Assembly: GCA_041659405.1 (NCBI GenBank)
Contig: JBAZYK010000003.1
Location: forward strand, 127,651-159,650
Reading direction: 5' to 3'
Source of the DNA: Candidatus Altimarinota bacterium
Lineage (GTDB): Bacteria > Patescibacteriota > Gracilibacteria > UBA1369
DNA length: 32,000 bases
Part shown: piece by piece, positions 5,785 through 30,632 of the stretch
Layout of the letters: the number at the start of each line of letters is the position of its first letter
How positions within the stretch are numbered: the stretch's first letter is position 1
Translations under genes and position numbers: made by a program
The notes under the pieces: generated by a model
Seen by the model: the letters and a program-made list of their open reading frames with translations, nothing else
Told to the model about the DNA's origin: nothing
Database searches by the model: none

Positions 5785-5786
5785 CA

Positions 5787-5851: not shown

Positions 5852-5887
5852 CATTATCAAAAACGAAAATTCATTTAATACCCCCCC

Positions 5888-7715: not shown

Positions 7716-10700
7716 CTAAAACGCAAAGACCCTCACAATAATCTTGGCAGCTTCACCGCGGGTGAGGTTGTTGTTTGGCCCAAACAGGTTTAACGGGTTT
7801 CCCTGGCCGTCAACATATCCGGAGATAAAGCTGTGATCAACCGCAAACGAAATGTATCTATAATACCACGCTGTTGCAGAAACATCAGTAAAAGTTAGCG
7901 CGTTTCCATGAATTTCCTGATCGGCATAGATTGTTGCCAAGACGACTTTTAGGGCTTCTGCTCGAGTGATTTGGTTAAACGGCAGGAAGTAATTTTTGGA
8001 ACCGACCACAACTCCCAATGATTTTGCTTTAGAAACGGCTGCACTAAACCAATCGGTTGTGTGTACATCAAAGAATGGATTTTCGGTGGCTGCCGGCAGT
8101 GTTGGGAACTGGCACTGCATCACAATTTTCACCAATTCCGCTCTGGAAATTGTATCATTTGGTCGATATTCGTTAAGGAGATTCCCGTTTGCATCTTTAT
8201 ATCCTTGAACATCACATTTCTGCTGGAGTTTTTCGATATAGGTTTCAGCCCAATGGTTTTGGGTATCTGTGAAAAGTGCTTGCGCTACCGGTTGTGTTTG
8301 AGGTTGTTGCGCCGGTTGCGCTGGTTGATTATTCTGAGTTGGCTGAGTATTAAAAATAACGCCACTGCCGCCGGTGGTAATCGTGAATGAATTAATTCCA
8401 AGTGCCGTACCGGCATTTCCGGTTGCATCGGTAACAAGAATAGTACAGCCGGAATGAGTTCCAAGACTCATTGATTGAAATGTAATAGTATTGTCACCGG
8501 AAATTGCGCTGGTGGTTAAGCTTAAACAACTTCCTGAATATGTGATTGTTCCAGCTTCATCAGAACTGAATGTATAATTAGGAGTTGAGTCGATGGTTGA
8601 ACTTGGAACTGCGAGAACTTCGGCTAAAGTTGGGGCGGTATTATCGATTGTGAATGTGGATCCGCTTGTTGGAACGGCTGTGATAACATTTTCCGCGACA
8701 TCGGTTCCAATCGACATTGAAACAGTTGCAGTTGCAATGTTTCCAGCCGGTACATCCAAATCATACGTATATTCCGTGGTACTAACTTTTGTCATGGCTG
8801 TTGCCGACAAAACCGCATTATCAACTGCAATTTTAACTACAGGTGAGTCTGCCATTGGTTCATTAAATGTTGCTTTGATTATTAATGTATTAGCGTTTCT
8901 AACTGATTCTGTTGAGGCGTATGTAACCCCGGCATCTTTTGAATATGTAATCGCTGCGGTTGGCGCGGTTGTATCAAAAGTCACCGCTGTTCTGCTAACC
9001 GCTGTTGCGGCGTTTCCCGCGTCATCGGTTGCGTTGAATGCAAATGTATAGACGGCTCCGCTAACCAATCCGCTGGAATCACTCGTACATCCGTTTGTTG
9101 TATCCGAAAGATCCAAGTTCGCATGTGCTCCGGTATTTTTCGCTGTACCGACTAACGTACAGGTATGCGGAGCGCTGCCATCTGCCGTTCCTGAAGTTTG
9201 TGAAATTAAAATTGTTCCACTCGCGACTGCTTCGCTCAATGTATAACTCACATCGGATGAAGTGGTGACATTATTTATTGAAGTACTTGCGGTTGGGCTC
9301 ACGCTGCTGAATACCGGGATAATTGTATCGATTGTGTAATCGCTTGTGTCGGTAACGGTTGTTTGGTTTCCTGCGTTGTCTGTAACGGTCACGGTCACAT
9401 TGTTGGTTGCATCATCTTGGCTGTCCATGGCGCCGGATAGTGATGTTGTCCAAGTATCTGATGAATTACTTCCAACCAAAGCCGTATCGCCAGCTTTAAA
9501 GTTTGCCGCATTAAAACTCACGGAAGAAATCGTGTCCGTGTTATTGTCGCCGGTCGCAAGTGTATCGTCCCAGGTTGGCACTGCGGTATTTCCATTCTTA
9601 AACGCGCCGCCCGTTCCCGTTGCTCCCGTTACGGAAATATTTGCCGCGGTTAATGTGGGCGCGATATTATCAACCGTCGCATTGGTTGTATCCGCTGCCG
9701 TAGTTGCATTTCCCGCATCATCCGTCGCTGTCACGGAAACATTTCTGTTTGTAGTGTCGATTATGCCTGCAATAACAGGAAAAGTTGCCGTCCAGGTTCC
9801 ACTTGAATTGGTTGCAGCGACTGCCGCTCCTCCTCCAAATTGGCTAAAATCAACCGTAACGGTTGAAATTGTATCCGAGTTATTTTGTCCTCCAGCGGTA
9901 TTATTCCAGGTTGCCGTTACAGTATCGTTAATCTTATACGCGCCGCCCGTTCCACTTCCTCCGGAAATTGAAATATATGCATCGGTCACAGTTGGCGGCA
10001 AAGTATCCACCGCAAAAGCTGAAGAATACATGGTTGTTCCGGTTGCTGTTCCGTTGTTTGGCGTGATCCGCAGCCAAACGGTTAAATCATTCGTGTTGGG
10101 AATATCCGTAGCCGCGTTCCAGGCAAATGTAAGGGCAACGGAGCCATCGTTATTTGTATCAATTCCGGAAATGGTATTGGTGGAAATAGTCACACCATTT
10201 CCCTCTCCATTTTCAGAAGCGGATGCAATTGTGGCGTTAACCCAGGTCACATTGTTTGTGGAATATTCTACAGAAACAGATGTTGTGCCCAAACCCGCAT
10301 CAACAATTGTTGAAGTGGCGGTGACAAGAGACGCGGAAGTCTGCGAGGCATTTGGTTTACTGGCGACCGGAGCGGTGGTGGCGGGAATGGTGGTGGTGTT
10401 GAGAATAACTTTCACATGGCCCACAGGGGAAGCTGAATCTGCTCCGGCAATATCAGTTTTCCCATCTGCATTAAAATCACCTGTGACTAAAACCCAATTA
10501 CCTCCTGTTGTATAGTCTGTCTTCGCACCAAAGGTTCCGTCTCCTACACCTAATAGGACTGAATCTTTGCTACCACTAATTCCTACAACAAGATCGGTTT
10601 CTCCATCTGCATTAAAGTCGCCTGTAGCTGTTCCAAATGTATGAGCCCCTATAGCAGTATTTGCTGCCGCACCAAAAGTTCCATCTCCAGTGGGAGAACC

Positions 10701-11573
10701 TAAGAGAACTGAAATGTTATTATCAGCATAATTTGCCACAAAAAGATCGAGTATGCCATCTGCATTGAAGTAGCCTGCGGCCATAGAGATTGAATTACCT
10801 CCTGTAATGTAGTTTGCTGCCGCACCAAAAGTTCCAAGTCCCGTACCTAATAAGACTGAGACGCCACCGGCAGTACCTTTTGCATCAGCCAGGTCAAGAT
10901 TACCATCACCATTGAAGTCGCCCATAATCAAATATTGTGGACCAGTTCCCGCGGCATAGTTTGTTGCCGTACCAAAAGCTCCATTTCCATCACCTAATAA
11001 AACTGAAATGTTGTTCGTGCTAAAATTTACCACAGCTAAATCGAGCTTACCATCACCATCAAAGTCGCCTGCAACAGCCACCATTGGAGCAGTCCCTACA
11101 GGGTAATTTACTGCTGTATTGAATGTCCCATCTCCTCTACCCAACAAAATTGAGACATTGTTATCACTATAATTTGGCACAGCAAGATCAGTTTTGCCAT
11201 CACCATTAAAGTCACCTGCAACTGATGAAATTGGATTTGCTCCTACAGCGTATGGCACCGCCGCACCAAAAGTCCCATTTCCAATGGAAGAACCCAACAG
11301 AACTGACACAGTGTTACCATAAACATCTGCTATAGAAAAATCAAAAATACCATCTCCATTGAAATCACCTTTGGTTATTGAATACGAACCATCTCCTTCG
11401 TTATAACTCGCATCCGCAGCAAACGTCACCGCCGCATGCGCCGATTTTGTTGATAACCCTAAAAATCCTATCCCAATAAATAAAAAGGATAACGCAAAAA
11501 TCCCTAACTTTTTTAAATTTGTTCCAAAGTTATAGACTGAATTATTTTCCATTTGTTTTTTATTTTTTTGCAT
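7716..11573 (-). CDS. Giant surface protein P1: signal peptide, 7 FG-GAP/VCBS repeats, Ig-like domain array, Q/P linker, 3 SLH domains
   Basis: 1285 aa. Signal peptide ending 'KSAHA|AV'. Seven repeats of '(G/Y)(D)F(N/D)(G/A)DG..D' with 'VSVLLG.G.GTFG' (about nt 10398-11411). Tandem domains of about 100 aa, each ending '(V/I/F)D(T/N)xxPT'. Linker 'QPTQNNQPAQPAQQPQTQP'. Three SLH-like units (nt 7719-8279): 'FTDTQNHWAETYI..', 'FFDVHTTDWFSAAV..ITRAEALKVV', 'FTDVSATAWYYRYI..LTRGEAAKIIV'. Confidence 0.85.
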   Translation of the reverse strand: MQKNKKQMENNSVYNFGTNLKKLGIFALSFLFIGIGFLGLSTKSAHAAVTFAADASYNEGDGSYSITKGDFNGDGIFDFSIADVYGNTVSVLLGSSIGNGTFGAAVPYAVGANPISSVAGDFNGDGKTDLAVPNYSDNNVSILLGRGDGTFNTAVNYPVGTAPMVAVAGDFDGDGKLDLAVVNFSTNNISVLLGDGNGAFGTATNYAAGTGPQYLIMGDFNGDGNLDLADAKGTAGGVSVLLGTGLGTFGAAANYITGGNSISMAAGYFNADGILDLFVANYADNNISVLLGSPTGDGTFGAAANTAIGAHTFGTATGDFNADGETDLVVGISGSKDSVLLGVGDGTFGAKTDYTTGGNWVLVTGDFNADGKTDIAGADSASPVGHVKVILNTTTIPATTAPVASKPNASQTSASLVTATSTIVDAGLGTTSVSVEYSTNNVTWVNATIASASENGEGNGVTISTNTISGIDTNNDGSVALTFAWNAATDIPNTNDLTVWLRITPNNGTATGTTMYSSAFAVDTLPPTVTDAYISISGGSGTGGAYKINDTVTATWNNTAGGQNNSDTISTVTVDFSQFGGGAAVAATNSSGTWTATFPVIAGIIDTTNRNVSVTATDDAGNATTAADTTNATVDNIAPTLTAANISVTGATGTGGAFKNGNTAVPTWDDTLATGDNNTDTISSVSFNAANFKAGDTALVGSNSSDTWTTSLSGAMDSQDDATNNVTVTVTDNAGNQTTVTDTSDYTIDTIIPVFSSVSPTASTSINNVTTSSDVSYTLSEAVASGTILISQTSGTADGSAPHTCTLVGTAKNTGAHANLDLSDTTNGCTSDSSGLVSGAVYTFAFNATDDAGNAATAVSRTAVTFDTTAPTAAITYSKDAGVTYASTESVRNANTLIIKATFNEPMADSPVVKIAVDNAVLSATAMTKVSTTEYTYDLDVPAGNIATATVSMSIGTDVAENVITAVPTSGSTFTIDNTAPTLAEVLAVPSSTIDSTPNYTFSSDEAGTITYSGSCLSLTTSAISGDNTITFQSMSLGTHSGCTILVTDATGNAGTALGINSFTITTGGSGVIFNTQPTQNNQPAQPAQQPQTQPVAQALFTDTQNHWAETYIEKLQQKCDVQGYKDANGNLLNEYRPNDTISRAELVKIVMQCQFPTLPAATENPFFDVHTTDWFSAAVSKAKSLGVVVGSKNYFLPFNQITRAEALKVVLATIYADQEIHGNALTFTDVSATAWYYRYISFAVDHSFISGYVDGQGNPLNLFGPNNNLTRGEAAKIIVRVFAF
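8958..9290 (-). repeat. 333-bp block 100% identical to 22454-22786 (inside P2)
   Basis: Base-by-base comparison at a constant offset of 13496 nt shows no mismatches. Both copies are flanked by a mismatch on each side. It encodes 'PTASTSINNVTTSSDVSYTLSEAVASGTILISQTSGTADGSAPHTCTLVGTAKNTGAHANLDLSDTTNGCTSDSSGLVSGAVYTFAFNATDDAGNAATAVSRTAVTFDTTAPT'. Confidence 0.95.
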
Positions 11574-16452: not shown

Positions 16453-16574
16453 AAAATTCATTTAAATTGAGCAGATACAAGGCGAAAATAAAAAATCGAC
16501 CGCAGTGTATTTAGTTATACACGAGGATCGATTTTTTGTTTTCAACGAAGTAGATGCCAATTTAAATGAATTTT
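16453..16574. repeat. Nested inverted-repeat structure at the nrdJ 3' end
   Basis: A 17-nt perfect inverted repeat 'AAAATTCATTTAAATTG' (16453-16469) pairs with 16558-16574. It encloses a second imperfect hairpin ATCGACCGCAGTGTAT/ATACACGAGGATCGAT (16495-16532). That inner hairpin is flanked by an A-run on one side and a T-run on the other. The right outer arm overlaps the nrdJ stop codon (16573-16575). Confidence 0.8.
16484..16544 (-). terminator. Probable intrinsic terminator of nrdJ
   Basis: Minus-strand reading: ATCGATCCTCGTGTAT-aactaa-ATACACTGCGGTCGAT followed by TTTTTTATTTT. The inner stem GTGTAT/ATACAC and outer stem ATCGA/TCGAT are separated by an internal loop. Confidence 0.55.
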
Positions 16575-19500
16575 AGCTACACCCACTGGTTTCTCCACAA
16601 TCCACGCATTTATAACAACTCCCATTACGCACCATCACCGCGCCGCAAGCTGTACAAATAGCCGCATCTTCGTTGTTTAAGGACAGTGCTTTATCCTTTT
16701 GCATCTTGGCAAATTCTTCACGACTCATGGCGTTGACAGCAGCTTCACGCGCGCCAACCTTTTCCATTTCTTTCACGGAAATTTTCTCGATTTCCACGTT
16801 TTTTGCTGATTGATGAGTTCGTTCCTTCATAATTGAAGCCGTTACATCCTCAAACTTTGCCGCCCGATTCAATCCCCGAATTTGACCATCTGAATCGACA
16901 CTTCCGTCCGCAGCCTCCACCATTTCCAACGGCAACTTAGGCAAAAACAGGCTTGTTCCCTCGTTATAAGCACGATCCACCAAATCTTCATTGTGATATT
17001 TTTTAACCACATCACGAGGCAAAAATTTCAATCCCAGCCAGCGACCGATATAATCCACAATTGATTTAACCATTGGGATATCACGATTTCCGGTCATGCC
17101 GGCCGGTTCAAATCTGGAATGGCAGAACTTGCTGACCAAAACTTCCAAAGGCACGCCATATTGCAGATTCAACGAAATAGTCAAAGCCAGCGCATCCATA
17201 ATTCCGGATAGTGTAGAGCCTTCCTTGCTCATCTTGATAAAGATTTCGCCCGGCAAACCGTCCTCGTACAAGCCAACCGTAATGTAACCTTCATGTCCGG
17301 AGATCGAAAATTTATGAGTAATACTGTGACGTTCCGATGGCAATTTGCGACGGAAAGGTTTTTGCACAATTTTCTCGATCACCTGCTGAACCTGCTGCGG
17401 ACCAACCGCTTCACTCATATCTTCCACATTTTCAAAATTGAAAAGCTCGGCAAAATTTCCCTGAGTACTGCCGGTATTTAATGGCTGACTCAATTTAGAT
17501 CCATCGCGATATAAAGCATTACACTTCAACATCAACGCCCAACTTTCCATATAAGCTTTTTGGATGTCGGAAACCGTGCATTCCTCCGGCATATTTACCG
17601 TCTTGGAAATCGAACCGGAAATAAAAGGCTGAGCCGCCGCCATCATGTGCAAATGGCCTGTGTAAGGGATATAACGCTTGCCCTTCTTTCCACATTTATT
17701 GGCGCAATCAAAAACCGCGTAATGTTCTTTTTTAAGATGAGGAGCTTCCTCAATCGTCATGGTTCCACAAACATATTCGTTAGCTTCGGCAATTTGCTCC
17801 TTGCTAAAGCCAAGCGCGAGCAACATATCAAACTCAAAATCATTCAATTCCACATCGGTTAATCCCAAAACTTTTCGGCAGAATTCTTCACCCAAAGAAA
17901 ATTTATTAAACGCGAATTTTAGTTCAAAGACGCCGGTTAATTGAGTTTCAATCGCCAAAATTTCTTTATCGGTGAATCCCTTCTTTTTTAAGGATCCCGG
18001 ATTTATATGAGGACAATCCCCTAAAGTCGCATGACCCTTCACATAATTTTCAATATCCAAAATTTGCGCGCTGGAATAACCCAAAGTTTCCAAAGCCGGT
18101 TTTAAAGATTGATTTACGATCTTAAAATAACCACCACCAACCAGTTTCTTAAATTTAATCAAAGCAAAATCAGGTTCAATGCCGGTGGTATCGCAGTCCA
18201 TTACAAGCCCGATTGTCCCTGTCGGAGCAACCACCGTCACCTGCGCATTACGATAACCAAACTGTTCACCCCAATTTAAAGCACGATCCCAAACTTCACG
18301 CGCGGACTCCAAAAGATAATCGGGACAATACGCCGGATTGATCCCCTGTGGCGCAACACTCAAATTTTCATATTCATTTTTAGCTGCATTATAAGCCGCA
18401 CGGCGATGATTGCGGATGACCTTCAACATGTGTTTTTTATTCTTTTCATACTTATTAAAAGGCTTTAGCACCTTGGCCATTTCCGCCGAAGTCGCATAGG
18501 ATTCACCGCACATAATAGCCGTAATCGCCCCGGTAATAGCGTAAGCTTCTTCCGAAGTATAAGGAAAACCCATCTGCATCAGCATAGTGCCAATGTTGGC
18601 ATAGCCAAGACCCAAAGTACGGAACTCATAACTCAATTCCGCAATTTCCTTGGATGGAAACTGTGCCATTAAAACCGAAACCTCCAACACAATCGTCCAC
18701 AAACGAACACTATGTCTAAAAGCCTGAATATCAAACTGTTTAGTATTTTGATTATAAAATTTAATCAGATTTAACGAAGCCAAATTGCAGGCGGTATCAT
18801 CCAAAAACATATATTCCGAGCATGGGTTACTGGCGTTAATACGGCCATCTTCCGGACAGGTATGCCACTCGTTAATAGTGGTGTCATATTGAATTCCCGG
18901 ATCGGCGCATGACCAGGCGGCATAAGCAACTTCAGCCCACAACTTGCGGGCGGAAATTGATTTATAGGTTTTACCATCTTTGCGATTTTTTAAATCCCAA
19001 AGACCATCTTTTTTCACAGCATCAATAAACTCATTCGGAACACGAATTGAATTATTGGAATTTTGGCCGCCAACAGTCAAATAAGCCTCGGAACGGAAAT
19101 CGGTATCATAACGGCGGAAACTGAATTCCTCCGGTTTCATGCCATCTTCAATCAACATCAAAACACGTTTAATGTAATTGAGTGGAACATGTTTTTTATT
19201 GGCTTCATAAATTTTTAATTTGAGCGCCGGATTTTTTTCCGGATCAAGCCCGGAGTCATGAGCGCAGTCCACAATTTTCTTGAGTTCTTCGTAACAAACG
19301 TGTGAACCTGCATGCAGTGCGGCCACTTTTTGCTCTTCTGTAACTTTCCAGTTAATAAATTCCTGAATTTCCGGATGATCCATATCCAAACACACCATTT
19401 TGGCCGCACGACGGGTTGTTCCACCGGATTTTATTGCACCGGCAGCTCTATCCAAAACAGCCAAAAAGCTCATCAAGCCGGAAGATTTACCGCCACCGGA

Positions 19501-20253
19501 AAGATTTTCATTTACACCACGCAATTTAGAAAAGTTGGTTCCCGTACCTGAGCCATATTTAAACAAACGCGCCTCGCGAACCACTAAATCAAAAATTCCA
19601 CCCTCGTTTACCAAATCATCGTTTACCGCTTGAATAAAGCACGCATGGGGCTGAGGTCTGGTATAAGCATCCTTGGATTTTGTCAGTTTTTCAGTTTCAG
19701 GATCAACATAAAAGTGCCCCTGCGCATCACCGGTAATCCCATAAGCATGAGCCAAGCCGGTGTTAAACCATTGTGGACTGTTTGGAGCACACATTTGAGC
19801 CACAATCATATGTTTCAATTCATCTTCAAAAGCCTGCGCATCATCGGCAGTTTCAAAATAATTATATTTTTCACCCCAATGACGCCAGGTTGAAGCCATT
19901 CTATTGGCAACCAATTTAATGGAAGTCTCCGCCCCCAAAACCGGTTTTCCATCTTTATCCAAAATTGCATTTCCACTTTTATCCATTTGAGGAACCCCCT
20001 TCTTACGGCAATATTTTTGCGCCAAAATGTCGGTTGCAACCTGCGACCAGAATTTTGGAACTTCCACATCCTTCATTTCAAAAACCACCGAACCGTCCGG
20101 ATTGGTAATTTTTGAAACCCGCAACTCAAAATCAAAAGCAGCAAAAGGATCCTTGCCCTTTTCAGTAAAAAAACGCTCAATTTTTAAACCTTTTCCGGTT
20201 CGATCCGCAAGCGAAGTTGAAGCGACCTTTTGGAAAGTATTTGGGACAACCAT
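16573..20253 (-). CDS. nrdJ: Class II (adenosylcobalamin-dependent) ribonucleotide reductase
   Basis: Hallmarks: N-terminus 'GLKIERFFT', 'QMCAPNSPQWFNTG', 'CFIQ', catalytic 'ASNPCSEYMFLDDTACNLASLNL', and a C-terminal Cys-rich tail 'CTACGAVMVRNGSCYKCVDCGETSGCS'. The track ORF extends to a TTG at 20394. I place the start at ATG 20253 ('MVVPNTFQKV...') because the 47 extra codons have no RNR-like sequence. Confidence 0.92.
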   Translation of the reverse strand: MVVPNTFQKVASTSLADRTGKGLKIERFFTEKGKDPFAAFDFELRVSKITNPDGSVVFEMKDVEVPKFWSQVATDILAQKYCRKKGVPQMDKSGNAILDKDGKPVLGAETSIKLVANRMASTWRHWGEKYNYFETADDAQAFEDELKHMIVAQMCAPNSPQWFNTGLAHAYGITGDAQGHFYVDPETEKLTKSKDAYTRPQPHACFIQAVNDDLVNEGGIFDLVVREARLFKYGSGTGTNFSKLRGVNENLSGGGKSSGLMSFLAVLDRAAGAIKSGGTTRRAAKMVCLDMDHPEIQEFINWKVTEEQKVAALHAGSHVCYEELKKIVDCAHDSGLDPEKNPALKLKIYEANKKHVPLNYIKRVLMLIEDGMKPEEFSFRRYDTDFRSEAYLTVGGQNSNNSIRVPNEFIDAVKKDGLWDLKNRKDGKTYKSISARKLWAEVAYAAWSCADPGIQYDTTINEWHTCPEDGRINASNPCSEYMFLDDTACNLASLNLIKFYNQNTKQFDIQAFRHSVRLWTIVLEVSVLMAQFPSKEIAELSYEFRTLGLGYANIGTMLMQMGFPYTSEEAYAITGAITAIMCGESYATSAEMAKVLKPFNKYEKNKKHMLKVIRNHRRAAYNAAKNEYENLSVAPQGINPAYCPDYLLESAREVWDRALNWGEQFGYRNAQVTVVAPTGTIGLVMDCDTTGIEPDFALIKFKKLVGGGYFKIVNQSLKPALETLGYSSAQILDIENYVKGHATLGDCPHINPGSLKKKGFTDKEILAIETQLTGVFELKFAFNKFSLGEEFCRKVLGLTDVELNDFEFDMLLALGFSKEQIAEANEYVCGTMTIEEAPHLKKEHYAVFDCANKCGKKGKRYIPYTGHLHMMAAAQPFISGSISKTVNMPEECTVSDIQKAYMESWALMLKCNALYRDGSKLSQPLNTGSTQGNFAELFNFENVEDMSEAVGPQQVQQVIEKIVQKPFRRKLPSERHSITHKFSISGHEGYITVGLYEDGLPGEIFIKMSKEGSTLSGIMDALALTISLNLQYGVPLEVLVSKFCHSRFEPAGMTGNRDIPMVKSIVDYIGRWLGLKFLPRDVVKKYHNEDLVDRAYNEGTSLFLPKLPLEMVEAADGSVDSDGQIRGLNRAAKFEDVTASIMKERTHQSAKNVEIEKISVKEMEKVGAREAAVNAMSREEFAKMQKDKALSLNNEDAAICTACGAVMVRNGSCYKCVDCGETSGCS

Positions 20254-20644
20254 AGATGGGGGGAAATTAAAGGGAGTAGATGGGGAAAAACATTTTGGGG
20301 ACTCTCTAAGTCCTTTCTTCCGTGTTGAGTCCACAAAAGTGAAGAAAGAAGCAAGCCCACCACATATAGGTGAGCCTATTAAGATAAACCACAAGATGTT
20401 GATGGACGTCCCCTAAGATAGTCTTTTGGAAACTCTGCGTCAAGGAAACTGGATTCAAAATTCTTTGCGCTACAATTCGTTTATTATGTGATATACAAAA
20501 GCCAAACGCACAGAACAAAATGGCACATCAGGCAAGGGCTCATCGATCAAAATCCTTTGCTGAAAAACACTTGAAAATGGTACCATCACCAGCCCTCTTT
20601 TTTACAAAAATTTTCCTCTGGTTTAAATTCAACGCTGACGAGCC

Positions 20645-23600
20645 CTAAAACGCAAAAACCCTCACAATAATCTTGGCTGCTTCACCGCGGGTTAGGTTAT
20701 TGTTTGGGCCAAACAGGTTTAACGGGTTCCCCTGGCCGTCGACATATCCGGAAACGATGTTTTTAAGCACTGCGGTATAAATATATTTTCCATACCACGC
20801 GCCCTTGATTGTATCCGTAAATGTTAATGCCCCATCAACAATTTGCGCTTCAAGATAATTAACCAAAAGTATCATTTTGGTGGCTTCTGCACGGGTAACA
20901 GGCTGGATCGGCTTAAAGATTGTTCCATTTTGATAACCAATCACAATATTTAAGATTTTTGCTTTGGCCACGGCAGGTGCAAACCACGAATCTTTTGGCA
21001 CATCTTTAAACGGATCATTTAGAGGATTTGGAAGTGTCGCATATTTGCACTGCATAAACATTTTTGCATATTCGGCTCTGCTGATTTGGTTGTTTGGTCG
21101 ATATTCATTAAGTAGATTTCCATCTGCGTCTTTGTATCCTTGAACATTGCATTTCTGTTGGAGTTTTTCGATATAGGTTTGTGCCCAGTGGTTTTGAGTA
21201 TCTGTGAAAAGTGCTTGTGTTGCCGGTTGAGTTTGAGGTTGTTGCGCCGGTTGTGTTGGCGGTTGCGTTGCCAGTTGTGTTGGCTCTTGCGTTTGGGTGG
21301 TTGGAGTTGTTGGTGTAGTAGTTGTTGTTGTTGTAGTCGAGCTTCCGCCGCCACCACCACCTCCGCCGCTGCTGCTGCTCTGATTAACGATTATGGTGTC
21401 TGCGGTCACTGCCGAATCTTGATATATTGTGGCATCACCGCTTGTTGTGACTGTAATGGTATATGCTCCCGTAGAGCCAATCGACCCGGATGTGACTATA
21501 TTTTGAATTGTACAGCTTTCTGCAGCCGCTGCCTGTTCACTTCCACCACTCCTGGCAAGAATAACTGTTTGTGAAGAAACTGTTGTCGTGATTGAACCAT
21601 CCATTGTTGAACAAACTCCCGCTGAAGCTGATGCAACATTAAACCCTGATCCAAATGTAATCTTGATTTTGTCGGTAGCTGCAATTGTTCCATTTGGTGT
21701 AAAGGTGGCTGTTGCCGTTGTGGATGATCCAATTCCATACGTGGATAACGACACATCTGTTGATGATAATGATGCTGCGGTTTCAACAACCGTATTATTG
21801 TCATGAACCAGGTTTGTATTGGACGCCATATCTGTCACCGCCAATGCGTCTACATCCAGCACAACCGCTCCGCCATCTCCTCCTGTTGTCCCTGAAATAG
21901 CTATTGCGGCTGCACGTTGCGCGGCGGTTAATGTGAAAGTTAGACTCGTCGCGTCCACATTGGCAGGCGCGGCTGTCAGGCTCACGACATCTGTTCCGGT
22001 TATATTATTTAGATGAAAACCACTCGCAACCGTTGCGCTTGCATCCATGATTTCACTGAAAGTTGTCACCATTACAGCCGTACCATAGTTAATTGTTGTT
22101 GAAACTACGACCGGTTTGGCCGCATCGGTAAGATTCACCGCTGTCCAGGTTTGTAACTGGTTTCCGGCTGCATCCGAAATTTCTCTGGCTCCATTATCGG
22201 TATACGCAATAGTTGGAGCTGTTGTATGGCTGGTTATGTTTGAATTTCCCAATGTTCCCAAAACCAGACGCACCGTTGAAGTATCAGGATAACTCAGGGT
22301 TCCGGAAGTCAAAACCGATCCGGTAATATCATTGGCCACATACGCAAAATCGGCAATTGTTGCCGTCTGCGTTGAAACAGGTTCCGAAAGGGTTAATGTA
22401 ACACGATCAACTCGTCCATCGTTATCTGAATCTTCATAAACTTTTGCGGAAATGGTTGGCGCGGTTGTATCAAAAGTCACCGCTGTTCTGCTAACCGCTG
22501 TTGCGGCGTTTCCCGCGTCATCGGTTGCGTTGAATGCAAATGTATAGACGGCTCCGCTAACCAATCCGCTGGAATCACTCGTACATCCGTTTGTTGTATC
22601 CGAAAGATCCAAGTTCGCATGTGCTCCGGTATTTTTCGCTGTACCGACTAACGTACAGGTATGCGGAGCGCTGCCATCTGCCGTTCCTGAAGTTTGTGAA
22701 ATTAAAATTGTTCCACTCGCGACTGCTTCGCTCAATGTATAACTCACATCGGATGAAGTGGTGACATTATTTATTGAAGTACTTGCCGTTGGGCTCACGC
22801 TGGTGAAAACGGGAATGATTGTATCGATTGTGTAATCGTTTGTGCCGGTTGCAGATGCGGTGTTTCCTCCATTATCCGTGATGGTTACGGTCACATTGTT
22901 GGTTGCATCATCCTGGCTGTCCATGGCGCCGGATAGCGATGTTGTCCAAGTATCTGATGAATTACTTCCAACCAAAGCCGTATCCCCCGCTTTAAAGTTT
23001 GCTGCGTTAAAGCTCACGGATGAAATTGTATCCGTATTATTATCGCCGGTCGCAAGTGTATCGTCCCAGGTTGGCACTGCGGTATTTCCATTTTTAAACG
23101 CTCCACCGGTTCCCGTTGCTCCAGTCACGGATATTTTTGCGGCGGAAATTGTTGGCGCAACATTGTCCACGCTGATCGCATCGGAAGCTGTTGTTGCAGT
23201 GTTCCCCGCGTTATCGGTGACGGTGATTATAAATGTCAGGGCACCGGTATCCAATGCGCCGGCGGTAACAACCGTAGATTCCGAAGTAGCCGCAAGTGTA
23301 GCCTGGCCGGTTAATGTTGTTAAATTTATTGTTGTTGTATCGGTATCGGAAGCATCAAGCGTAACTGCACTTTGTGTAACTTTATCCTGATTTGTTGAAC
23401 CGTCATTTAACGCAGCAACACTCGCCGTCCCATTATCCGTTGAAATCGTTAACGTTCCATTTGCGCTGATGATTGGCGCAACGCTATCCACAGTAGCATT
23501 TGTTGTATCAGAAGCCGTTGCTGCGTTTCCCGCATCATCGGTTGCAGTGACGGAAACGTTTCGGTTTGTTGTATCAATTGCTCCTGCAGCTATTTCATAT

Positions 23601-26455
23601 GTTGCTGTCCAGGTTCCGGATGAATTTGTCGCGGAAACCGCCGCTCCTCCACCAAATTGGGTGAAGTTAACCGTTACGGTTGAAATTGTATCTGAATTAT
23701 TTTGGCCTCCTGCCGTATTATTCCAGGTTGCCGTTACAGTATCGCCAATCTTATATGCTCCTCCAGTTCCGCCCGCGCCACTTATGGAAATATATGCGTC
23801 GGTCACCGTTGGCGCCAAAGTATCCACAGGAAAAAGAGTTGAAGTTTGTGTTGTTCCATCTACAGTGTCATCATTTGGCTTTACGCGGAAATAAACCGTT
23901 GGATCATCGGTATTTGGAATGTCGGTTGCGATGTCCCAATTGAAGGTTAAAGCTATATCACCATTAAAATCCGTATCAATATCGGAAATTAGACCGGCTA
24001 CGGAAGTTGCACCGTCGCCTTCCAGCCCTTCACTAATAGATGAAACCGTGGCGTTAACCCAATCGGAATTATTCAAAGAATATTGAACGGTTAGATTTGT
24101 TACATCGTTGTCCGCATCTGCAACGGTGGTTACAACCGCCACAGCTGTTGCTGATGTTTGACTTGGCAACGCGTCACCGGTAATAGCGCTTGCCGTTGGA
24201 GCAGTATTAGACACATTTATAAATGAAACTTTATCTACAGAAGCCGTTTCCCCAGACGCTCCCTGCGTAAAAGCCCGAACATTAAAAGTTCCGGCAGTAA
24301 GTCCGGACAAACACGGATCAGTCAAATCCCCTGCGGCACTTGCGGTAGAAATCGTATTATCACCTAAGGTAAGTACGCCTCCGGAACAATAATTCCAAGT
24401 GACACCAGCATCATCAGAAACCTGAAATTTCACCACGGCAGATCCGGTTGTTGATGTTGTAGCTGCAAATGTTGTAATTGAATTAAATGTGTGACCAACA
24501 GTAAATTTCAAATTCTCAGAAACGGTTGCGGGAGCCACTTCAGCAGCAAACTCAACAGTAGGTTCGGTTGTGGCATATGAACGAATATAAAGATCATCCA
24601 TATAACTAATACCGCCATTATAACGAGAAAACCCAACTTTCAAAGGCGTTTCCGAAAGATAAACACTATCAAAAATCAAATTGAAAATAGTTCTATCATT
24701 CGGATTACTCAGATAATATTTCGCTCCAGTGCCTTTAAGCTGTATTTTTAACCAATAAGTTGAATTACAATTGAAAGTACCACCCCCCCCTTGGCTAACC
24801 CCACCCTCATAAACCTCACGAGTTCCACTGGTGGTAGTTGCAGCACTAAAATATATGCCATGAGTAATAGCGGTATAACTCACACCACTACCATTGTTCC
24901 AGCCAATCATAGTATTGTCCAAACCAATATCGCAAGTAGGTGTGTACTTCACGCGTAACTCTTTTGTTCCCCTGGCAAAAGTACTATCAGTAAACAAAGC
25001 CGTTTCACCCCAGGCTGAAGTTCCGGCATTAATTAAAATTTGATTATTCTGTTCAATGTTAGATCCAACATCAGTCTCATCCCATTTAGCCGTATTGATT
25101 GTTAAACCTGTGAAATCATCAAAGAAGTCAAAAACATTAGCACCATTGCTCGCATCTGCAGCAGCAGCATTTCCATAGTACATATAAATAGTTGCTGTTC
25201 CAGTGGCTGCAATCGTAGGCACTTCAACCCAAAAAGTGGCACTGGTACTATCCACTTTTGTCTCCAGCCAGTGATCAATTAAAGTTTCCCCATCCGAACT
25301 TGTAAAACGGATATCATCAAAATCAGCCTGCATATCGGTATCATAAGTAACAGCAACCTCAACCTGGAAATTAGTTAATACAGAAGCAGTACTGTTGGTA
25401 ACCGTAACGGCTTTTTGCTTAGTCCAACTGGCATTATACCAATTAGAAGTTATCACTTGCGCAGTACCACCGGCATAAGTAAAAGCAGCAGCGTCACTTT
25501 CTGTATAAAAATTAGTTGAATTAAAAGTCCTGCTTGTTTTTATAACGGCATTAGCGGTCGGAGCAGCATCCTGAATAGTAAAATTGCTTTCACTTGTCAC
25601 GGCATAATTATTACCATCATTATTTGATGAAATTCTTATTTTAACTGTCGCGCAAGTCGCCCCACCACAAACAGTTGTGGCGGAAGGAACAGTCCATACA
25701 TAAGATTTAACCGCGGCAGCATCAGCAACAGAAGCTTCAGAAGCATCAATAGTTGAAGCTGTCGCAAAACCATCTGTTGAATATTCCAGCTTAACAGTTT
25801 CGCCGGCCCCACCGCCGGTACTTCCCCATTCTACGTTTTGCACAGTTCCACCCTGGACAGCGCCACCTACATTAAAAGTATATAATTCAATCGCTCGCGG
25901 AACATAAAAAGTTGAAGCTGCTGACCACGACCCCTCTCCATCGGAATTGGCAAAAAGAATATGCCAATAATAAGTTGTATTATAAGCCAATTGAGTTCCG
26001 CCATAAGAAATATCCGCACTCCTGGCCGCGTCACTTATATCAACGATATTAATTGATCCGGATTGCCAAGTGACGCCCGTAGTAAAATTACCGGTACCTC
26101 CATCAACTGTAGGATCAGCAGCAACCTCAATTTTTGCAGTTATACATTGTCCAAGTGGAGCATTACAAATTGCCGAAAAAACCGGAGAAAGACTCGTTAA
26201 ATTGGTTGGATTAACATCACCGGCCTGCGCATTTGTACTATTGGAATAAAGCGTTGTAGGCGCAGAAGGAACAACCGCACTTACCCTTTGGACAATACTT
26301 CCAAAATTTTGAAAAATAAAAAATAAAAATAAAAAAAGAACCAGTGAAGCTCGCTTCACTCGCGGTAGAAGTAGACACTTCAGGCGTGGAAGAAAACTAT
26401 TCCTTCCTATAAATTTACTTCTTTTTTTATTCTTGATTTTAAGTGAAAATTTCAT
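20645..26455 (-). CDS. Giant surface protein P2: signal anchor, FN3-like module, Ig-like, DUF2341, LamG/concanavalin-like, Ig-like array, S/G/T linker, 3 SLH domains
   Basis: 1936 aa.
- N-terminal hydrophobic anchor 'ASLVLFLFLFFIF'.
- Residues ~64-186 follow the 'P.FSA...W.SG...Y.G..L...T.YYW...' pattern.
- Residues ~339-435 match the DUF2341 pattern ('W...R..VTV......L.NFQV.V.......DF.DIRF...DG..L.HW.E.........FWVEVP........IYMYYGN').
- Residues ~440-627 are a LamG-like beta-sandwich.
- Many domains of about 100 aa end 'VD..APT'.
- Linker 'SSSSGGGGGGGGSSTTTTTTTTPTTPTTQTQ...'.
- SLH triad at nt 20648-21214. Confidence 0.85.
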   Translation of the reverse strand: MKFSLKIKNKKRSKFIGRNSFLPRLKCLLLPRVKRASLVLFLFLFFIFQNFGSIVQRVSAVVPSAPTTLYSNSTNAQAGDVNPTNLTSLSPVFSAICNAPLGQCITAKIEVAADPTVDGGTGNFTTGVTWQSGSINIVDISDAARSADISYGGTQLAYNTTYYWHILFANSDGEGSWSAASTFYVPRAIELYTFNVGGAVQGGTVQNVEWGSTGGGAGETVKLEYSTDGFATASTIDASEASVADAAAVKSYVWTVPSATTVCGGATCATVKIRISSNNDGNNYAVTSESNFTIQDAAPTANAVIKTSRTFNSTNFYTESDAAAFTYAGGTAQVITSNWYNASWTKQKAVTVTNSTASVLTNFQVEVAVTYDTDMQADFDDIRFTSSDGETLIDHWLETKVDSTSATFWVEVPTIAATGTATIYMYYGNAAAADASNGANVFDFFDDFTGLTINTAKWDETDVGSNIEQNNQILINAGTSAWGETALFTDSTFARGTKELRVKYTPTCDIGLDNTMIGWNNGSGVSYTAITHGIYFSAATTTSGTREVYEGGVSQGGGGTFNCNSTYWLKIQLKGTGAKYYLSNPNDRTIFNLIFDSVYLSETPLKVGFSRYNGGISYMDDLYIRSYATTEPTVEFAAEVAPATVSENLKFTVGHTFNSITTFAATTSTTGSAVVKFQVSDDAGVTWNYCSGGVLTLGDNTISTASAAGDLTDPCLSGLTAGTFNVRAFTQGASGETASVDKVSFINVSNTAPTASAITGDALPSQTSATAVAVVTTVADADNDVTNLTVQYSLNNSDWVNATVSSISEGLEGDGATSVAGLISDIDTDFNGDIALTFNWDIATDIPNTDDPTVYFRVKPNDDTVDGTTQTSTLFPVDTLAPTVTDAYISISGAGGTGGAYKIGDTVTATWNNTAGGQNNSDTISTVTVNFTQFGGGAAVSATNSSGTWTATYEIAAGAIDTTNRNVSVTATDDAGNAATASDTTNATVDSVAPIISANGTLTISTDNGTASVAALNDGSTNQDKVTQSAVTLDASDTDTTTINLTTLTGQATLAATSESTVVTAGALDTGALTFIITVTDNAGNTATTASDAISVDNVAPTISAAKISVTGATGTGGAFKNGNTAVPTWDDTLATGDNNTDTISSVSFNAANFKAGDTALVGSNSSDTWTTSLSGAMDSQDDATNNVTVTITDNGGNTASATGTNDYTIDTIIPVFTSVSPTASTSINNVTTSSDVSYTLSEAVASGTILISQTSGTADGSAPHTCTLVGTAKNTGAHANLDLSDTTNGCTSDSSGLVSGAVYTFAFNATDDAGNAATAVSRTAVTFDTTAPTISAKVYEDSDNDGRVDRVTLTLSEPVSTQTATIADFAYVANDITGSVLTSGTLSYPDTSTVRLVLGTLGNSNITSHTTAPTIAYTDNGAREISDAAGNQLQTWTAVNLTDAAKPVVVSTTINYGTAVMVTTFSEIMDASATVASGFHLNNITGTDVVSLTAAPANVDATSLTFTLTAAQRAAAIAISGTTGGDGGAVVLDVDALAVTDMASNTNLVHDNNTVVETAASLSSTDVSLSTYGIGSSTTATATFTPNGTIAATDKIKITFGSGFNVASASAGVCSTMDGSITTTVSSQTVILARSGGSEQAAAAESCTIQNIVTSGSIGSTGAYTITVTTSGDATIYQDSAVTADTIIVNQSSSSGGGGGGGGSSTTTTTTTTPTTPTTQTQEPTQLATQPPTQPAQQPQTQPATQALFTDTQNHWAQTYIEKLQQKCNVQGYKDADGNLLNEYRPNNQISRAEYAKMFMQCKYATLPNPLNDPFKDVPKDSWFAPAVAKAKILNIVIGYQNGTIFKPIQPVTRAEATKMILLVNYLEAQIVDGALTFTDTIKGAWYGKYIYTAVLKNIVSGYVDGQGNPLNLFGPNNNLTRGEAAKIIVRVFAF
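22454..22786 (-). repeat. 333-bp block 100% identical to 8958-9290 (inside P1)
   Basis: See the partner feature. Flanking homology at roughly 90% identity extends to about 24165 in P2 and about 10345 in P1. Confidence 0.95.
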
Positions 26456-26582: not shown

Positions 26583-29063
26583 TTATTGTGTGGGAATTTT
26601 CATTGCTCCCCAGGCTGAATCATAGTTATTTCCGGCATTCCAAACCACAAAAGAAAAAAGTCCAAGATCATATGTGGCATCAACCTGTTTTTGCACATAG
26701 GCAGGCCCAAAATTAGTCACGCGCAATCTAAATCCCTGCAACCACGGTCGTAACTCCACCGAAGTTCCTGCAATCAACTTCTGAAATTGTTTCAAACTTT
26801 CCTGCACAAAAAAATACGGTTCATTCGCAGGATTTTTGTGTCCGGCAAACCCGGGACCAAAATGCGAAGGATAAACCATCGGATAAATTGCATCAACGTA
26901 AGGCGCCAACTCTTCAATTTTCTGTCCGGTCGAAACCGAATCGTAGCCGCCATTCCAGGCAACCACCCCATAAACATCAATGCCCACTTTAACCCCAAGT
27001 GGATGCAATGTTTCACCCGCCTTCTTTAAAAAATCGCGAATAATTTCATATTTTTGAACAACCTTTTCATCAAACGAATAATTTGCTTGCCCAACTTTTC
27101 CCTGCGTTGGAAAGCGCACGTAATCAAACTGAATTTCATCCACGCCAAGTTTCGCAACTTCCTCAGCCACGCTGATTACATAATCCTGAACTGCAGGTAG
27201 CGAAGGATCAAGCCAAGACTGCCCTTCCGGACTCCTCCAAAGATTTCCGTTAAAATCATGAATCGCCCATTCCGGCTTTTTCACGGCCATTAACTCATCC
27301 TTAAAACAAACCACGCGCGCCACCACGGTAATCCCCTTTTCATGCGCGGACTTTATAAACGCCTGCGGATCCTTAAAAATAAGTCTGTTATTCCCACCAA
27401 CCTTTTTATTGATTTCATTTTGAGTTTGATAGTACAGATGCCCATCAGTTTCCTTAAAATCCACCACCACCAAATTGCCGCCACTTTGCTGCAATTTTTT
27501 CAAAATATCTTCAGCATGAGTAGAACCGGCCGAATAAGCCGTTAAATAAATCCCCCGATACGATATTAGATATTGCAAAGTTTTTATTAAAACCCGGGGA
27601 GCCTTTTTAAAAGTCGCCGCCAGATTAGTATAAATTTTCATCAAAAATTCACGATTTCTTTTATCCGCCGCCGCCTGCTCGGCCGGAGTTCGAATAATCT
27701 GCTGAATCACTTGAGTTTCGACTTGTTGAGTCACCGCAGTTTTTGCCACCTGTGTAGAATTTTGCTGAGTTGCCACCGTCACTTGCGTCCCCACGGCCAC
27801 ACCCTGCACCACCACTGCTTCCACGGCCGAAACTGGAAGCGCCAGCCCTGCCGCAATCGCACTTTGCACACCTGCCAAAACATTTTCAACATTCACCTCA
27901 CTAAAAATATATGGCTTAAAAGTTTCCACGCGTGCGCCCAAAGTCACAACCGCACGAGCCGTCTCTCCAGGCTTTCTGCCAAAATGTCGCAACCACTCAG
28001 CATCAATACCCTGAATGCGCGGTGTGCGAAAAGGATCAACCCCCGCAGCCAAAGTTTTTGTAGGATCAGCGCCGACCAAAAGTCCAAGTTTAATATTGTA
28101 AGAAATTCCATCAGCAGAACCGGACATTAAATCTGCCAAGTTAGATTTGGCAACAGGAACACCACCTTGCGCCACTGCACCACCAACCTCTTTGACAGAA
28201 GCAACAGGCACTTTTGGCACTCCACCAAAAGGATAAGCAATGGTATCCAAACGCATCCCCACCGGCAAAAGCGCTTTTAAAGCCTTAGTCTGATCCAAAA
28301 AAATCTGCTTAATTGCCTCCGGTTTCACTTTGGAAAGGTTTGTATGCGACAAAGTATGATAACCAATTTGACGACCGGTCTGATACAAATACTCAAACTT
28401 TTGCTTCACCAAATCTTTTTGACCAAAAGCGTTATCATTCACAAAAAATGTCGCAGCACGGCCAAAATCAGGATATTGTTTATAAAAGTCGTCCAAAATT
28501 CCAACAGCGCAGTTTGGGTCTATCTTAAGCTGTCCGGCGTCACTTACCCCCAAAGTTTGATTCTGACTGGCATCACTCGCCTCCAAAGTTTGACGCTGGC
28601 TAACATCACCGGCCCCCAAGCTTTGATTCTGGCTGACATCACCCTTCAAATATTTAAACTGACTGATCAGCCCATCATCAAAAGTTAAAATTACCGGCTT
28701 TTTCCCGGCAGGCCCCACAATCTTTCCATCAACAAAATCCTCCAAACTGATCAAACGATAATCATTATTATAAAGCCACAAAAGATCATTTTTAAATTGA
28801 TTCACCGAAGTCCCCCAGCGACTTCCGGCCGCATCAATATGATGAATCTCTAAAATCGGGATGCGGCCGGTAGCCACACTTACGCTTTGAACAGTGCCCG
28901 TACCGGCATTCGATGCGGACAAACTCGTGCTCCCACCAGTCACACCAGTCGTCACCAAATTTTGCGCGTACAATTTTTCAAAACTAAATCCTCCAAAAAC
29001 AAAACTTGCCGCTGTCACCGCCACACTCATCACCGCCAAAATCCCAAACGAAATTTTTCTCAT
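26583..29063 (-). CDS. Secreted bifunctional-looking enzyme: NodB-type polysaccharide deacetylase domain plus DUF4015/COG1306 TIM-barrel glycoside-hydrolase-like domain
   Basis: 826 aa. Signal peptide 'MRKISFGILAVMSVAVTAASFVFG'. NodB motifs 'ILEIHHI', 'PVILTFDDG', 'IGYHTLSH'. The C-terminal half, 'GIYLTAYSAGS...VVVDFKETDGHLYY...ARVVCFKDELMA...WLDPS...GVDEIQFDYVRFP', matches my memory of the putative glycosyl hydrolase domain DUF4015. Confidence 0.8.
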   Translation of the reverse strand: MRKISFGILAVMSVAVTAASFVFGGFSFEKLYAQNLVTTGVTGGSTSLSASNAGTGTVQSVSVATGRIPILEIHHIDAAGSRWGTSVNQFKNDLLWLYNNDYRLISLEDFVDGKIVGPAGKKPVILTFDDGLISQFKYLKGDVSQNQSLGAGDVSQRQTLEASDASQNQTLGVSDAGQLKIDPNCAVGILDDFYKQYPDFGRAATFFVNDNAFGQKDLVKQKFEYLYQTGRQIGYHTLSHTNLSKVKPEAIKQIFLDQTKALKALLPVGMRLDTIAYPFGGVPKVPVASVKEVGGAVAQGGVPVAKSNLADLMSGSADGISYNIKLGLLVGADPTKTLAAGVDPFRTPRIQGIDAEWLRHFGRKPGETARAVVTLGARVETFKPYIFSEVNVENVLAGVQSAIAAGLALPVSAVEAVVVQGVAVGTQVTVATQQNSTQVAKTAVTQQVETQVIQQIIRTPAEQAAADKRNREFLMKIYTNLAATFKKAPRVLIKTLQYLISYRGIYLTAYSAGSTHAEDILKKLQQSGGNLVVVDFKETDGHLYYQTQNEINKKVGGNNRLIFKDPQAFIKSAHEKGITVVARVVCFKDELMAVKKPEWAIHDFNGNLWRSPEGQSWLDPSLPAVQDYVISVAEEVAKLGVDEIQFDYVRFPTQGKVGQANYSFDEKVVQKYEIIRDFLKKAGETLHPLGVKVGIDVYGVVAWNGGYDSVSTGQKIEELAPYVDAIYPMVYPSHFGPGFAGHKNPANEPYFFVQESLKQFQKLIAGTSVELRPWLQGFRLRVTNFGPAYVQKQVDATYDLGLFSFVVWNAGNNYDSAWGAMKIPTQ
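28530..28643 (-). repeat. In-frame 33-nt tandem repeat (about 3.5 copies) inside the NodB domain
   Basis: Encodes 'GDVSQNQSLGA / GDVSQRQTLEA / SDASQNQTLGV / SDAGQ'. DNA units: GGTGATGTCAGCCAGAATCAAAGCTTGGGGGCC, GGTGATGTTAGCCAGCGTCAAACTTTGGAGGCG, AGTGATGCCAGTCAGAATCAAACTTTGGGGGTA. Confidence 0.9.
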
Positions 29064-29513: not shown

Positions 29514-30632
29514 ATGCAAACACCCAATCTCACAACCAGCAACCTTAAAATTATCGACGACCAAAATATCACAACCCTAAACGACCAGGAACTTCTTGCC
29601 ATGGACGACCAAAAATTGTTTGCGATGTGCCAAAAATATGGAGAACAAGCGCGAATCTGGCGTCAGAAATTTGCCGGACTACTTCCGGAAGTAAACAAAC
29701 GCCGCTTGTATGAGCGCAAAGGCTTTGAATCGATTTTCGTATTTGCCAAAAAATTGGCTAGTATGAGCGAACTGCAAGTACGACGAGCGCTCAATCTTAA
29801 AGAAAAATTCAAAGAAATGCCCATGCTGCAAAATCTTTTAATCAACGGTGAAGTTAGCATGAATAAACTCGCGCGCGTGGCTTCAATCGCAACTCCAAAA
29901 AATCAGGAAATTTTGGCTGAACAGGCAAAAATCCTTTCAAATCGAGCCCTGGAAACTTTTGTGAAAGATGAACGAACCGCAAAAGAAAATTCGGACCAAA
30001 ATGATCCAACCAAACTCATTGAAAGCGAAACCCAAAACGGCAGTATCAAAAATAAAAATAGCTTCCAGAAGCCACTTTTTGACCTTAAATCTGTGCACGT
30101 GCACACGCAAACAACAGATCTTTTCGAGGATGTCAAATTGCTCGAAAAACTTTCGTCGGAACTTAAAACAAAACTAAAAGAACTCGACCAAAAAGGCTTG
30201 GACATCAATCAAATTCTGCTCAAACTTTTGCAAAATCGTGAAGAAGAAATCGCAGCAGAAAAAGAAAAAATCGGCGAAGCAATCGTGGCAGAGCAGTTAA
30301 TGCAACAGCAGGCAAAAAGCCAGAAACAAGCGCTGAATGCACAAAATCAGGCTGCCAACACACAGATTCTCGCGGAAATTCCAACAAAAAAGCCATCACG
30401 CTACCTCAATGTGAAAATTAAAAACGTGCTTAAAAAAGAATTCGGTGATAAATGTTCGATTCCAGGTTGCAACAATCTTGCAAAACCAAATCACCACACG
30501 CAAAGGTTTGGACTAAGCCAAAATAACGACCCACGTTTTCTGGCCCCGCTTTGTCCGCAACATCACGAAATCGCGCATTCGATTGACCAAAAATATCAAT
30601 TCAGAAAACATCTGGCAATTTGCGCGACCTGA
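29514..30632 (+). CDS. HNH endonuclease-domain protein with a DUF222-like N-terminal region
   Basis: 372 aa. C-terminal HNH/zinc motif 'CSIPGCNNLAKPNHHTQRFGLSQNNDPRFLAPLCPQHHEIAH'. The N-terminal 'ARIWRQKFAGLLPEVNKRRLYERKGFESIFVFAKKLASMSELQVRRALNL' resembles the DUF222/13E12-type domain. The centre is a K/E/Q-rich coiled region. Confidence 0.75.
   Translation: MQTPNLTTSNLKIIDDQNITTLNDQELLAMDDQKLFAMCQKYGEQARIWRQKFAGLLPEVNKRRLYERKGFESIFVFAKKLASMSELQVRRALNLKEKFKEMPMLQNLLINGEVSMNKLARVASIATPKNQEILAEQAKILSNRALETFVKDERTAKENSDQNDPTKLIESETQNGSIKNKNSFQKPLFDLKSVHVHTQTTDLFEDVKLLEKLSSELKTKLKELDQKGLDINQILLKLLQNREEEIAAEKEKIGEAIVAEQLMQQQAKSQKQALNAQNQAANTQILAEIPTKKPSRYLNVKIKNVLKKEFGDKCSIPGCNNLAKPNHHTQRFGLSQNNDPRFLAPLCPQHHEIAHSIDQKYQFRKHLAICAT

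Follow-up and report, generated by a model that had tools for sequence, protein, structure and literature searches.

How does a bacterium of the Candidate Phyla Radiation (CPR) select the cells or surfaces on which it settles? Most of these bacteria live attached to other cells and, to our knowledge, the molecules with which they choose their partners are largely unknown. The question is raised here by a window of 32,000 nucleotides from a CPR genome (positions 127,651 to 159,650 of contig JBAZYK010000003.1, assembly GCA_041659405.1), in which two large open reading frames (ORFs) on the minus strand, P1 (1285 codons, 7716-11573) and P2 (1936 codons, 20645-26455, open under translation table 11 and coding for 1936 aa), appear to encode surface proteins. 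A preliminary description of this DNA had seen in them a common stalk and anchor bearing different heads, and this outline was borne out: P1 carries seven FG-GAP repeats, and P2 a head built around a DUF2341 domain. We consider it probable that P2 is a genuine, intact and exported surface fibre, a fibrillar adhesin by its architecture, in which a jelly-roll domain of the head would act as the ligand binder. Our main result is an incongruence within that head: as judged from sequence comparisons, the jelly roll acts like a cassette that can be exchanged within a fixed frame.

The P2 head: frame and jelly roll

The first ~760 residues of P2 have no counterpart in P1 or in the rest of the source genome (tblastn), a private region that had been recognized before, if at a shorter length of ~640 residues. 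Three modules had previously been distinguished in it, but two Ig (immunoglobulin)-like domains (aa 186-300 and aa 643-760) had been missed, which brings the head to five domains. These were delimited from the strand pattern of a structural model together with the conservation profile. The model (AlphaFold2, aa 55-760, 44-row alignment) is all-beta, with a predicted local distance difference test score (pLDDT) of 86.6 and a predicted template modelling score (pTM) of 0.73, and it superseded one made from the single sequence (aa 51-765), for which pLDDT was only 34.5. Read from the N-terminus, and all on the minus strand, the frame consists of an Ig-like beta-sandwich of the Ig_Rha78A_N (PF25788) type (D1, aa 61-185, 25901..26275; from Pfam, relatives and model), a second Ig-like beta-sandwich (D2, aa 186-300, 25556..25900; from model strands and conservation), the DUF2341 beta-sandwich (D3a, aa 301-445, 25121..25555; from PF10102 and model) and a further Ig-like beta-sandwich that closes it (D4, aa 643-760, 24176..24529; from model and relatives). 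The variable and probably concanavalin-like jelly roll, the candidate ligand-binding cassette, is lodged between the last two (D3b, aa 446-642, 24530..25120; from the model).

Across 14 relatives that share the frame, D1, D2, DUF2341 and D4 are 26-73% identical to P2 per 20-residue window, mostly at least 45% (41-73% in D2), and overall the frame domains reach 35-77% (DUF2341 35-77%, D4 38-71%), whereas aa 455-654 fall to 12-25% over most of their range. A P2-type jelly roll was detectable by BLAST in only two of the 14 (P0004, 57%; P0012, 26%). The same break is seen in the orthologue of P2 from a same-genus genome (G001), which is 60-90% identical over most of the stretch from D1 to DUF2341 (70-90% in D2) and 5-30% identical at aa 481-620. 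Jelly rolls 44-48% identical to that of P2 are found in P0048, P0039 (an Aenigmatarchaeota metagenome-assembled genome) and P0038; the latter two are devoid of D1/D2 and D4, and P0048 shows a D1-D2 match of just 28%, located at its far C-terminus. DUF2341 (aa 621-703) is followed immediately in P0021 by a true Laminin_G_3 domain (aa 742-870), and Laminin_G_3 was also matched somewhere in P0029 and P0032 (whole-protein matches). In surface proteins of Patescibacteria the head forms a conserved supermodule whose jelly roll is exchanged for another between lineages, and the main variation in specificity would likely reside within the head, at the jelly roll, rather than between whole heads.

As a unit, the head recurs in other Patescibacteria proteins. 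Residues 55-755 of P2 can be aligned over their full length with P0004, P0008, P0011-13, P0016 and P0017 (40-66% identity), the head was also found in three named Patescibacteria genomes, and the D1-D2 pair was recovered from only ~15-17 of 1.84 billion cluster representatives. Its relatives bear SLH (S-layer homology), PG_binding_1 or fn3 domains in the same protein, and in them the head unit is internal, usually preceded by a Gly-rich beta-helix-like module of ~320 aa, of which neither P2 nor any other part of the source genome holds a copy. In P0004 (aa 45-378) and in the G001 orthologue (locus L104, G001:C20:3000-21117; ORF from ~14743 to the contig end) this Gly-rich module sits between the signal peptide and D1, and the two copies are 57% identical to each other. 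Among the genomes of 40 relatives, the full head occurred only in the same-genus genome, and the matches of some kind that were found in 14 of the 40 were mostly DUF2341 pieces of giant proteins. Two giant ORFs from family-level relatives (G010:C1:266663-285217, locus L103, and G020:C1:1248058-1254828) code for 8157 and 11167 aa, with 3 and 8 DUF2341-type matches, respectively.

The individual frame domains differ in how readily they are named. For D1, the P2 sequence scores 22.2-25.4 bits against PF25788 (cut-off 27.4; the 22.2-bit match spans aa 109-184), and 13 of the 15 aligned head relatives match the same family at E <= 1e-3 (best E 1.1e-11); the modelled domain is all-beta, with a pLDDT of ~90 save in one loop. 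The 'P.FSA...T.YYW' pattern that had earlier been associated with an FN3-like module of glycosidases (PVFSA at aa 91, TTYYW at aa 160) does hold this match, and an N-terminal Ig domain is indeed there, but its more likely label is Ig_Rha78A_N, just below the cut-off in P2 itself. Taken alone, D1 is a tandem repeat unit of giant proteins (866 representatives at E <= 1e-3 in a library-wide phmmer search). D2 was modelled at pLDDT 73-96 and has a weak PKD_6 match (E 0.0016). The DUF2341 assignment, already made from the sequence pattern, is firm: PF10102 matches aa 378-460 at E 6.1e-27 (94.3 bits, with the cut-off at 23.4, covering positions 1-83 of the 84 in the profile), the domain (101.8 bits in the genome scan) is the sole DUF2341 in the genome, and its motif DMQADFDDIRF...IYMYYGN, with IYMYYGN at aa 423, lies in a region modelled at pLDDT 93-98. 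The DUF2341 core also harbours, at aa 372-398 ('YDTDMQADFDDIRF'), an acidic cluster (D..D...D..D..F) that is near-invariant across the 44 relatives and could be a metal or ligand site. D4 was modelled at pLDDT 92-97; it includes, at aa 676-687, an Asp-box-like SDDAGVTW with a weak BNR match (E 0.048), which is probably just a structural turn. NCBIfam added nothing to the Pfam annotation of P2, and PDB sequence searches (with the head and with a profile of the head alignment) gave no match in the head and FN3 matches only in the stalks of relatives.

Upstream of D1, residues 1-60 (26276..26455, minus strand; read from the translation) are read as a Sec signal peptide, with a long basic N-region, a hydrophobic core (ASLVLFLFLFFIF) and a VSA/V site; homology to the head relatives begins at aa 55.

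Ligand binder or enzyme

The modelled D3b (model residues 390-582) comprises ~14 strands and zero helices, and opens with an 'FDFFDDF...KW' strand, which we take to be typical of the concanavalin-like superfamily. When the whole head model was searched with Foldseek, the PDB list consisted mostly of chains of Ig domains, with GH16 jelly rolls among them (1mac, template modelling (TM) score 0.52; 8xph, TM 0.48), and a viral library returned as best matches the DUF2341/structural proteins of CroV, SEV1, SBRV1 and SPV2, besides phage 'Concanavalin A-like' proteins; the DUF2341 plus jelly-roll unit aligned with the SEV1 protein at TM 0.60 over 341 columns. In this model the fold of D3b is likely a concanavalin-like jelly roll.

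The narrower label of Laminin_G_3/LamG (PF13385, PF02210), under which the region had first been placed, failed in every sequence test. The whole-protein Pfam scan gave no LamG match in D3b at E <= 0.1, aa 446-650 scanned alone matched no Pfam family even at E <= 10, and the hhalign comparison of a 19-sequence profile with five bona fide Laminin_G_3 segments was not significant (E 0.059 over 74 columns). Of that earlier proposal, LamG has no support by sequence, and the concanavalin-like part stands on the AlphaFold model.

The resemblance to the GH16 structures 1mac and 8xph brings in the main rival to the adhesin reading, namely that the head is an enzyme displayed at the surface and active on carbohydrates (a lyase, or a glucanase of the GH16 kind), acting, together with the product of the gene upstream, on a host or environmental polysaccharide. 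That gene (26583..29063, on the same minus strand as P2; 826 aa) encodes Polysacc_deac_1 and DUF4015 (glycosyl-hydrolase-like) domains according to Pfam, and its adjacency to a P2-type gene is kept in G001, where contig C20 carries a homologue (57% identity) followed directly by the P2 orthologue. The D1 family is, moreover, named after a rhamnosidase, and five polar residues (R495, E550, D620, R625 and E631) are conserved among the P2-type jelly rolls. Yet the ExDxxE / ExDxE motif of GH16 is absent across P2 (regex search), no glycoside hydrolase or lyase family was matched in it (Pfam, NCBIfam), and within the head it is the jelly roll that is conserved least and that close relatives have swapped for unrelated versions, among them Laminin_G_3, a behaviour typical of binding modules and not of catalytic cores. 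Because the catalytic motif is missing and the domain is variable, the enzymatic head is disfavoured, and we hold it to be rather unlikely.

We reason instead that P2 is an adhesin whose variable jelly roll may bind a ligand, probably a glycan, on the surface of a host cell or of a substrate, and that an exchange of the jelly roll would change this specificity. Several points weigh against this reading: the jelly roll is the least confident part of the model (pLDDT 65-87), its fold call relies on whole-model Foldseek matches with modest TM scores, D3b shows no recognizable lectin family by sequence (Pfam, hhalign), and the conserved neighbour of the gene within the genus is itself carbohydrate-active.

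A bolder proposal, which we put forward tentatively and as more doubtful than otherwise, is that Ig-Ig-DUF2341-[jelly roll]-Ig serves as a display frame, into which jelly rolls that are exchanged horizontally among CPR bacteria, DPANN archaea and archaeal viruses are set as cassettes that determine the glycan target of the episymbiont. If this were true, a cassette swap would set the host or surface glycan, much like the exchange of receptor-binding domains in phage tail fibres. P2 is in any case a candidate host- or substrate-recognition protein that combines a variable domain of ~190 residues, a conserved and well-modelled frame and an anchor type that each sampled genome of the order employs for dozens of proteins; exchanged heads are a common feature of modular surface proteins, and P2 fits that pattern.

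Stalk, anchor and integrity of the fibre

Behind the head, the upper stalk of P2 (aa 761-1334, 22454..24175, minus strand; delimited by blastn and tblastn) is the cassette shared with P1 (P2 ~765-1334, P1 ~410-872). P1 itself (7716..11573, minus strand; Pfam and alignments) is composed of a signal peptide, the seven FG-GAP repeats, the shared Ig cassette (aa ~410-872), a lower stalk of its own type and three SLH domains. The identity of the cassette is 55% in its first part and ~80-82% over the last ~300 aa (tblastn); at the DNA level (blastn), one stretch is 79% identical and the other 92.7% over 717 nt. The latter stretch includes a block of no fewer than 300 nt that is identical base for base (8958-9257 = 22454-22753), a direct repeat between P1 and P2 that makes up the last 111 codons of the P2 upper stalk, and the 3' end of which, in gene orientation, coincides with the point where the two proteins become unrelated (after …VTFDTTAPT). 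This suggests that the exact repeat marks a conversion tract of recent date, with a domain junction as its boundary, and that the upper stalk, to judge from these identities, is recently homogenized with P1. It comprises ~five Ig-like modules in common with P1 and one inserted module found only in P2 (aa ~990-1095), where Big_13 is weakly matched (aa 1006-1097).

Past the junction, the lower stalk of P2 (aa 1335 to ~1690-1700, 21386..22453, minus strand; defined by sequence comparison) bears no resemblance to that of P1 (aa 872-1090), and is 42-43% identical to two other SLH proteins of the genome (C4:31215-34679 and C4:34868-37645). It has ~three beta-rich modules, counted from the sequence, as were the ~eight Ig-like modules of the entire stalk. 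A low-complexity linker follows (aa 1691-1746, 21218..21385, minus strand; read from the sequence), Ser/Gly-rich, then with a Thr run, then Pro/Thr/Gln-rich. By sequence, P2 is a mosaic put together from four sources or more, its lower stalk resembling the C4 paralogues and its upper part being shared with P1. The common stalk of the preliminary description thus survives in its upper cassette and not in the lower stalks (P2 1335-1700, P1 872-1090). Module shuffling is real as well: P0004, from an independent Logan assembly (locus L105), combines a P2-type head (66%), cassette modules, a P1-type lower stalk (64% identical to P1 872-1090, with no match to the P2 lower stalk) and an SLH anchor, an actual case of the grafting that had been proposed. 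The 'modular family', by contrast, is reduced in the source genome to two members, P1 and P2 being the only carriers of the shared stalk cassette, and a search with the P2 stalk and anchor matched only Ig modules here and there, with no other family member at full length.

A repeat of this kind could also mislead an assembler, and in the extreme the lower stalk and anchor that the assembly gives to P1 would in reality belong to the head and upper stalk of P2. Such a mis-join would account for the exact repeat ending right where P1 and P2 diverge, P0004 displays that very alternative (a P2-type head on a P1-type lower stalk), and the contig of the G001 orthologue breaks within the stalk. However, both copies are direct and lie within one 160-kb contig, and therefore a single linear order (A-R-B-R-C) is the sole one that uses each unique segment once, and the alternative would leave a circle of 13.5 kb that carries UvrB and the ribonucleotide reductase. 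We regard the mis-join as highly improbable, and under it the head would still be borne by an Ig stalk whose SLH anchor is homologous, leaving the reading of the head unchanged. A chimeric origin of P2 at large is likewise unlikely on sequence grounds, because the orthologue is found behind the same neighbour gene, with its head running into Ig stalk modules before the contig ends, and because SLH domains are linked with this head, or with its DUF2341 core, in the independently assembled P0004, P0008 and P0084. The exact P2 sequence was found on one contig only (exact-sequence look-up).

The fibre ends in three SLH domains (aa 1747-1936 with the stop codon, 20645..21217, minus strand), its cell-wall anchor, matched by PF00395 in three stretches (E 4.2e-27, 94.3 bits against a cut-off of 20.8; genome-scan hits at C3:148325-148858). 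The preliminary description had credited P1 and P2 with the same anchor and a shared cassette, and rightly: the anchors are 66% identical over 190 aa, and the cassettes align up to the exact block of at least 300 nt. The motifs SRAE1792, TRAE1854 and TRGE1922 are of the TRAE type, presumably the polymer-binding element known from the structures of Sap and SpaA. The SLH triplet would thereby bind a pyruvylated wall polymer, in favour of which we cite a PS_pyruv_trans gene (PF04230, a CsaB-family candidate) at G000:C8:19271-20197 (E 1e-46, 159 bits against a cut-off of 25.3), and the stalk of ~eight modules would hold the head at a distance of some tens of nanometres from the cell surface.

SLH anchoring is widespread in this lineage. 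The source genome has 71 SLH matches in 31 ORFs, in which the position of the domains varies (near the N-terminus, internal, or near the C-terminus), and all 41 genomes sampled from the order have between 13 and 96 matches each, so that SLH display is lineage-wide. Among the 21 SLH proteins scanned, the passengers were FG-GAP (P1), DUF2341 (P2), Peptidase_S41 with PDZ, CAP, Beta_propel and FlgD_ig, and 11 showed nothing recognizable besides SLH. The other 29 SLH proteins share only their SLH domains with P1 and P2, save the two C4 paralogues with part of the P2 lower stalk. One further SLH protein, outside the 21 scanned and 5316 aa long (G000:C1:106009-121959, locus L083), has SLH-like stretches at two internal positions (~aa 1430-1600 and 4930-5065).

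With such an anchor, P2 might conceivably be a structural protein of the S-layer or envelope lattice, in which the head domains make lattice contacts. Besides the C-terminal SLH triplet, this would agree with one PDB match of the head to the Deinococcus HPI S-layer protein (8cka), and SLH proteins and S-layers are on record for related CPR lineages (10.1101/2024.03.08.584096). But P2 is just one of the 31 SLH proteins of its genome, its head was present only in the same-genus genome among the 40 relatives (a main lattice protein should be conserved), and a long Ig stalk with a distal head is fibre-like. We deem a lattice role very unlikely.

Known systems and gene neighbourhood

By its architecture, P2 resembles the fibrillar adhesins (an adhesive tip, repeated stalk domains and a wall anchor) that were reportedly surveyed by Monzon et al. 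in 2021. It is exported and has a distal non-repeated head, a stalk of Ig-like repeats, a low-complexity spacer and a wall anchor; the likeness is one of architecture alone, and P2 departs from these proteins in that its anchor is an SLH triplet instead of LPXTG/sortase or an autotransporter, and its head a five-domain supermodule around DUF2341, in a CPR bacterium. The SLH proteins Sap and EA1 of B. anthracis and SpaA of P. alvei bind a pyruvylated secondary cell-wall polymer. P2 has in common with these Firmicutes proteins three tandem SLH domains with TRAE-type motifs, along with a gene for a CsaB-family pyruvyl transferase in the genome, but its triplet holds a fibre with a head and not a lattice-forming domain. 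Leptospira LigA/LigB offer another parallel, as P1 and P2 are also paralogues with near-identical Ig-like stalk modules, probably kept alike via gene conversion, and differ in other parts; unlike in that pair, the distal heads are non-homologous (FG-GAP in P1, DUF2341 in P2) and the lower stalks differ too.

DUF2341 proteins are said to occur in archaeal type IV pilus loci. With the secreted DUF2341 proteins of Patescibacteria, DPANN and other archaea, P2 shares a DUF2341 core followed by a jelly roll that opens with 'F.FFDDF...W', whereas it has a single DUF2341 in a fixed Ig-Ig-DUF2341-jelly roll-Ig frame with SLH domains, and many of those relatives have tandem DUF2341 domains or pilin-type anchors. 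In structure, the unit of DUF2341 and jelly roll (~340 residues) is matched best by the Sulfolobales virus proteins (SEV1, SPV2, SBRV1) and the CroV DUF2341 protein (TM 0.48-0.60), which are themselves predicted structures, 13-15% identical in sequence to P2 and without the Ig frame and SLH anchor. Giant DUF2341 proteins have been described in Patescibacteria, and a role in adhesion or host interaction was suggested for them (PMC11809585). As the function of DUF2341 is still uncharacterised (PMC12505986), the P2 model provides a structural handle on a widespread domain.

Promoter and terminator scans around P2 gave about as many hits as shuffled sequence (20 vs 17 and 15 vs 11). Three ORFs of 269-372 aa (13808-14617 and 15208-16134 on the minus strand, 29514-30632 on the plus strand) matched no Pfam family at E <= 1e-3. 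Downstream of P2 lies a large ORF (16573-20394, minus strand), class II ribonucleotide reductase-like by inspection, whose first ~45 residues have a non-genic look, so that the TTG start given for it probably lengthens the N-terminus too far. The long ORFs are intact under table 11. The source genome amounts to 1.51 Mb in 21 contigs (completeness estimate 98.5%), its UvrB shares 75-79% identity with proteins annotated as Candidatus Gracilibacteria or Candidatus Peregrinibacteria, and we read the organism as an ultrasmall CPR bacterium of the Peregrinibacteria/Gracilibacteria type. Finally, positions 3351-7711 hold a LemA gene followed by two tandem paralogues of a DUF2207 membrane protein (626 and 607 aa).

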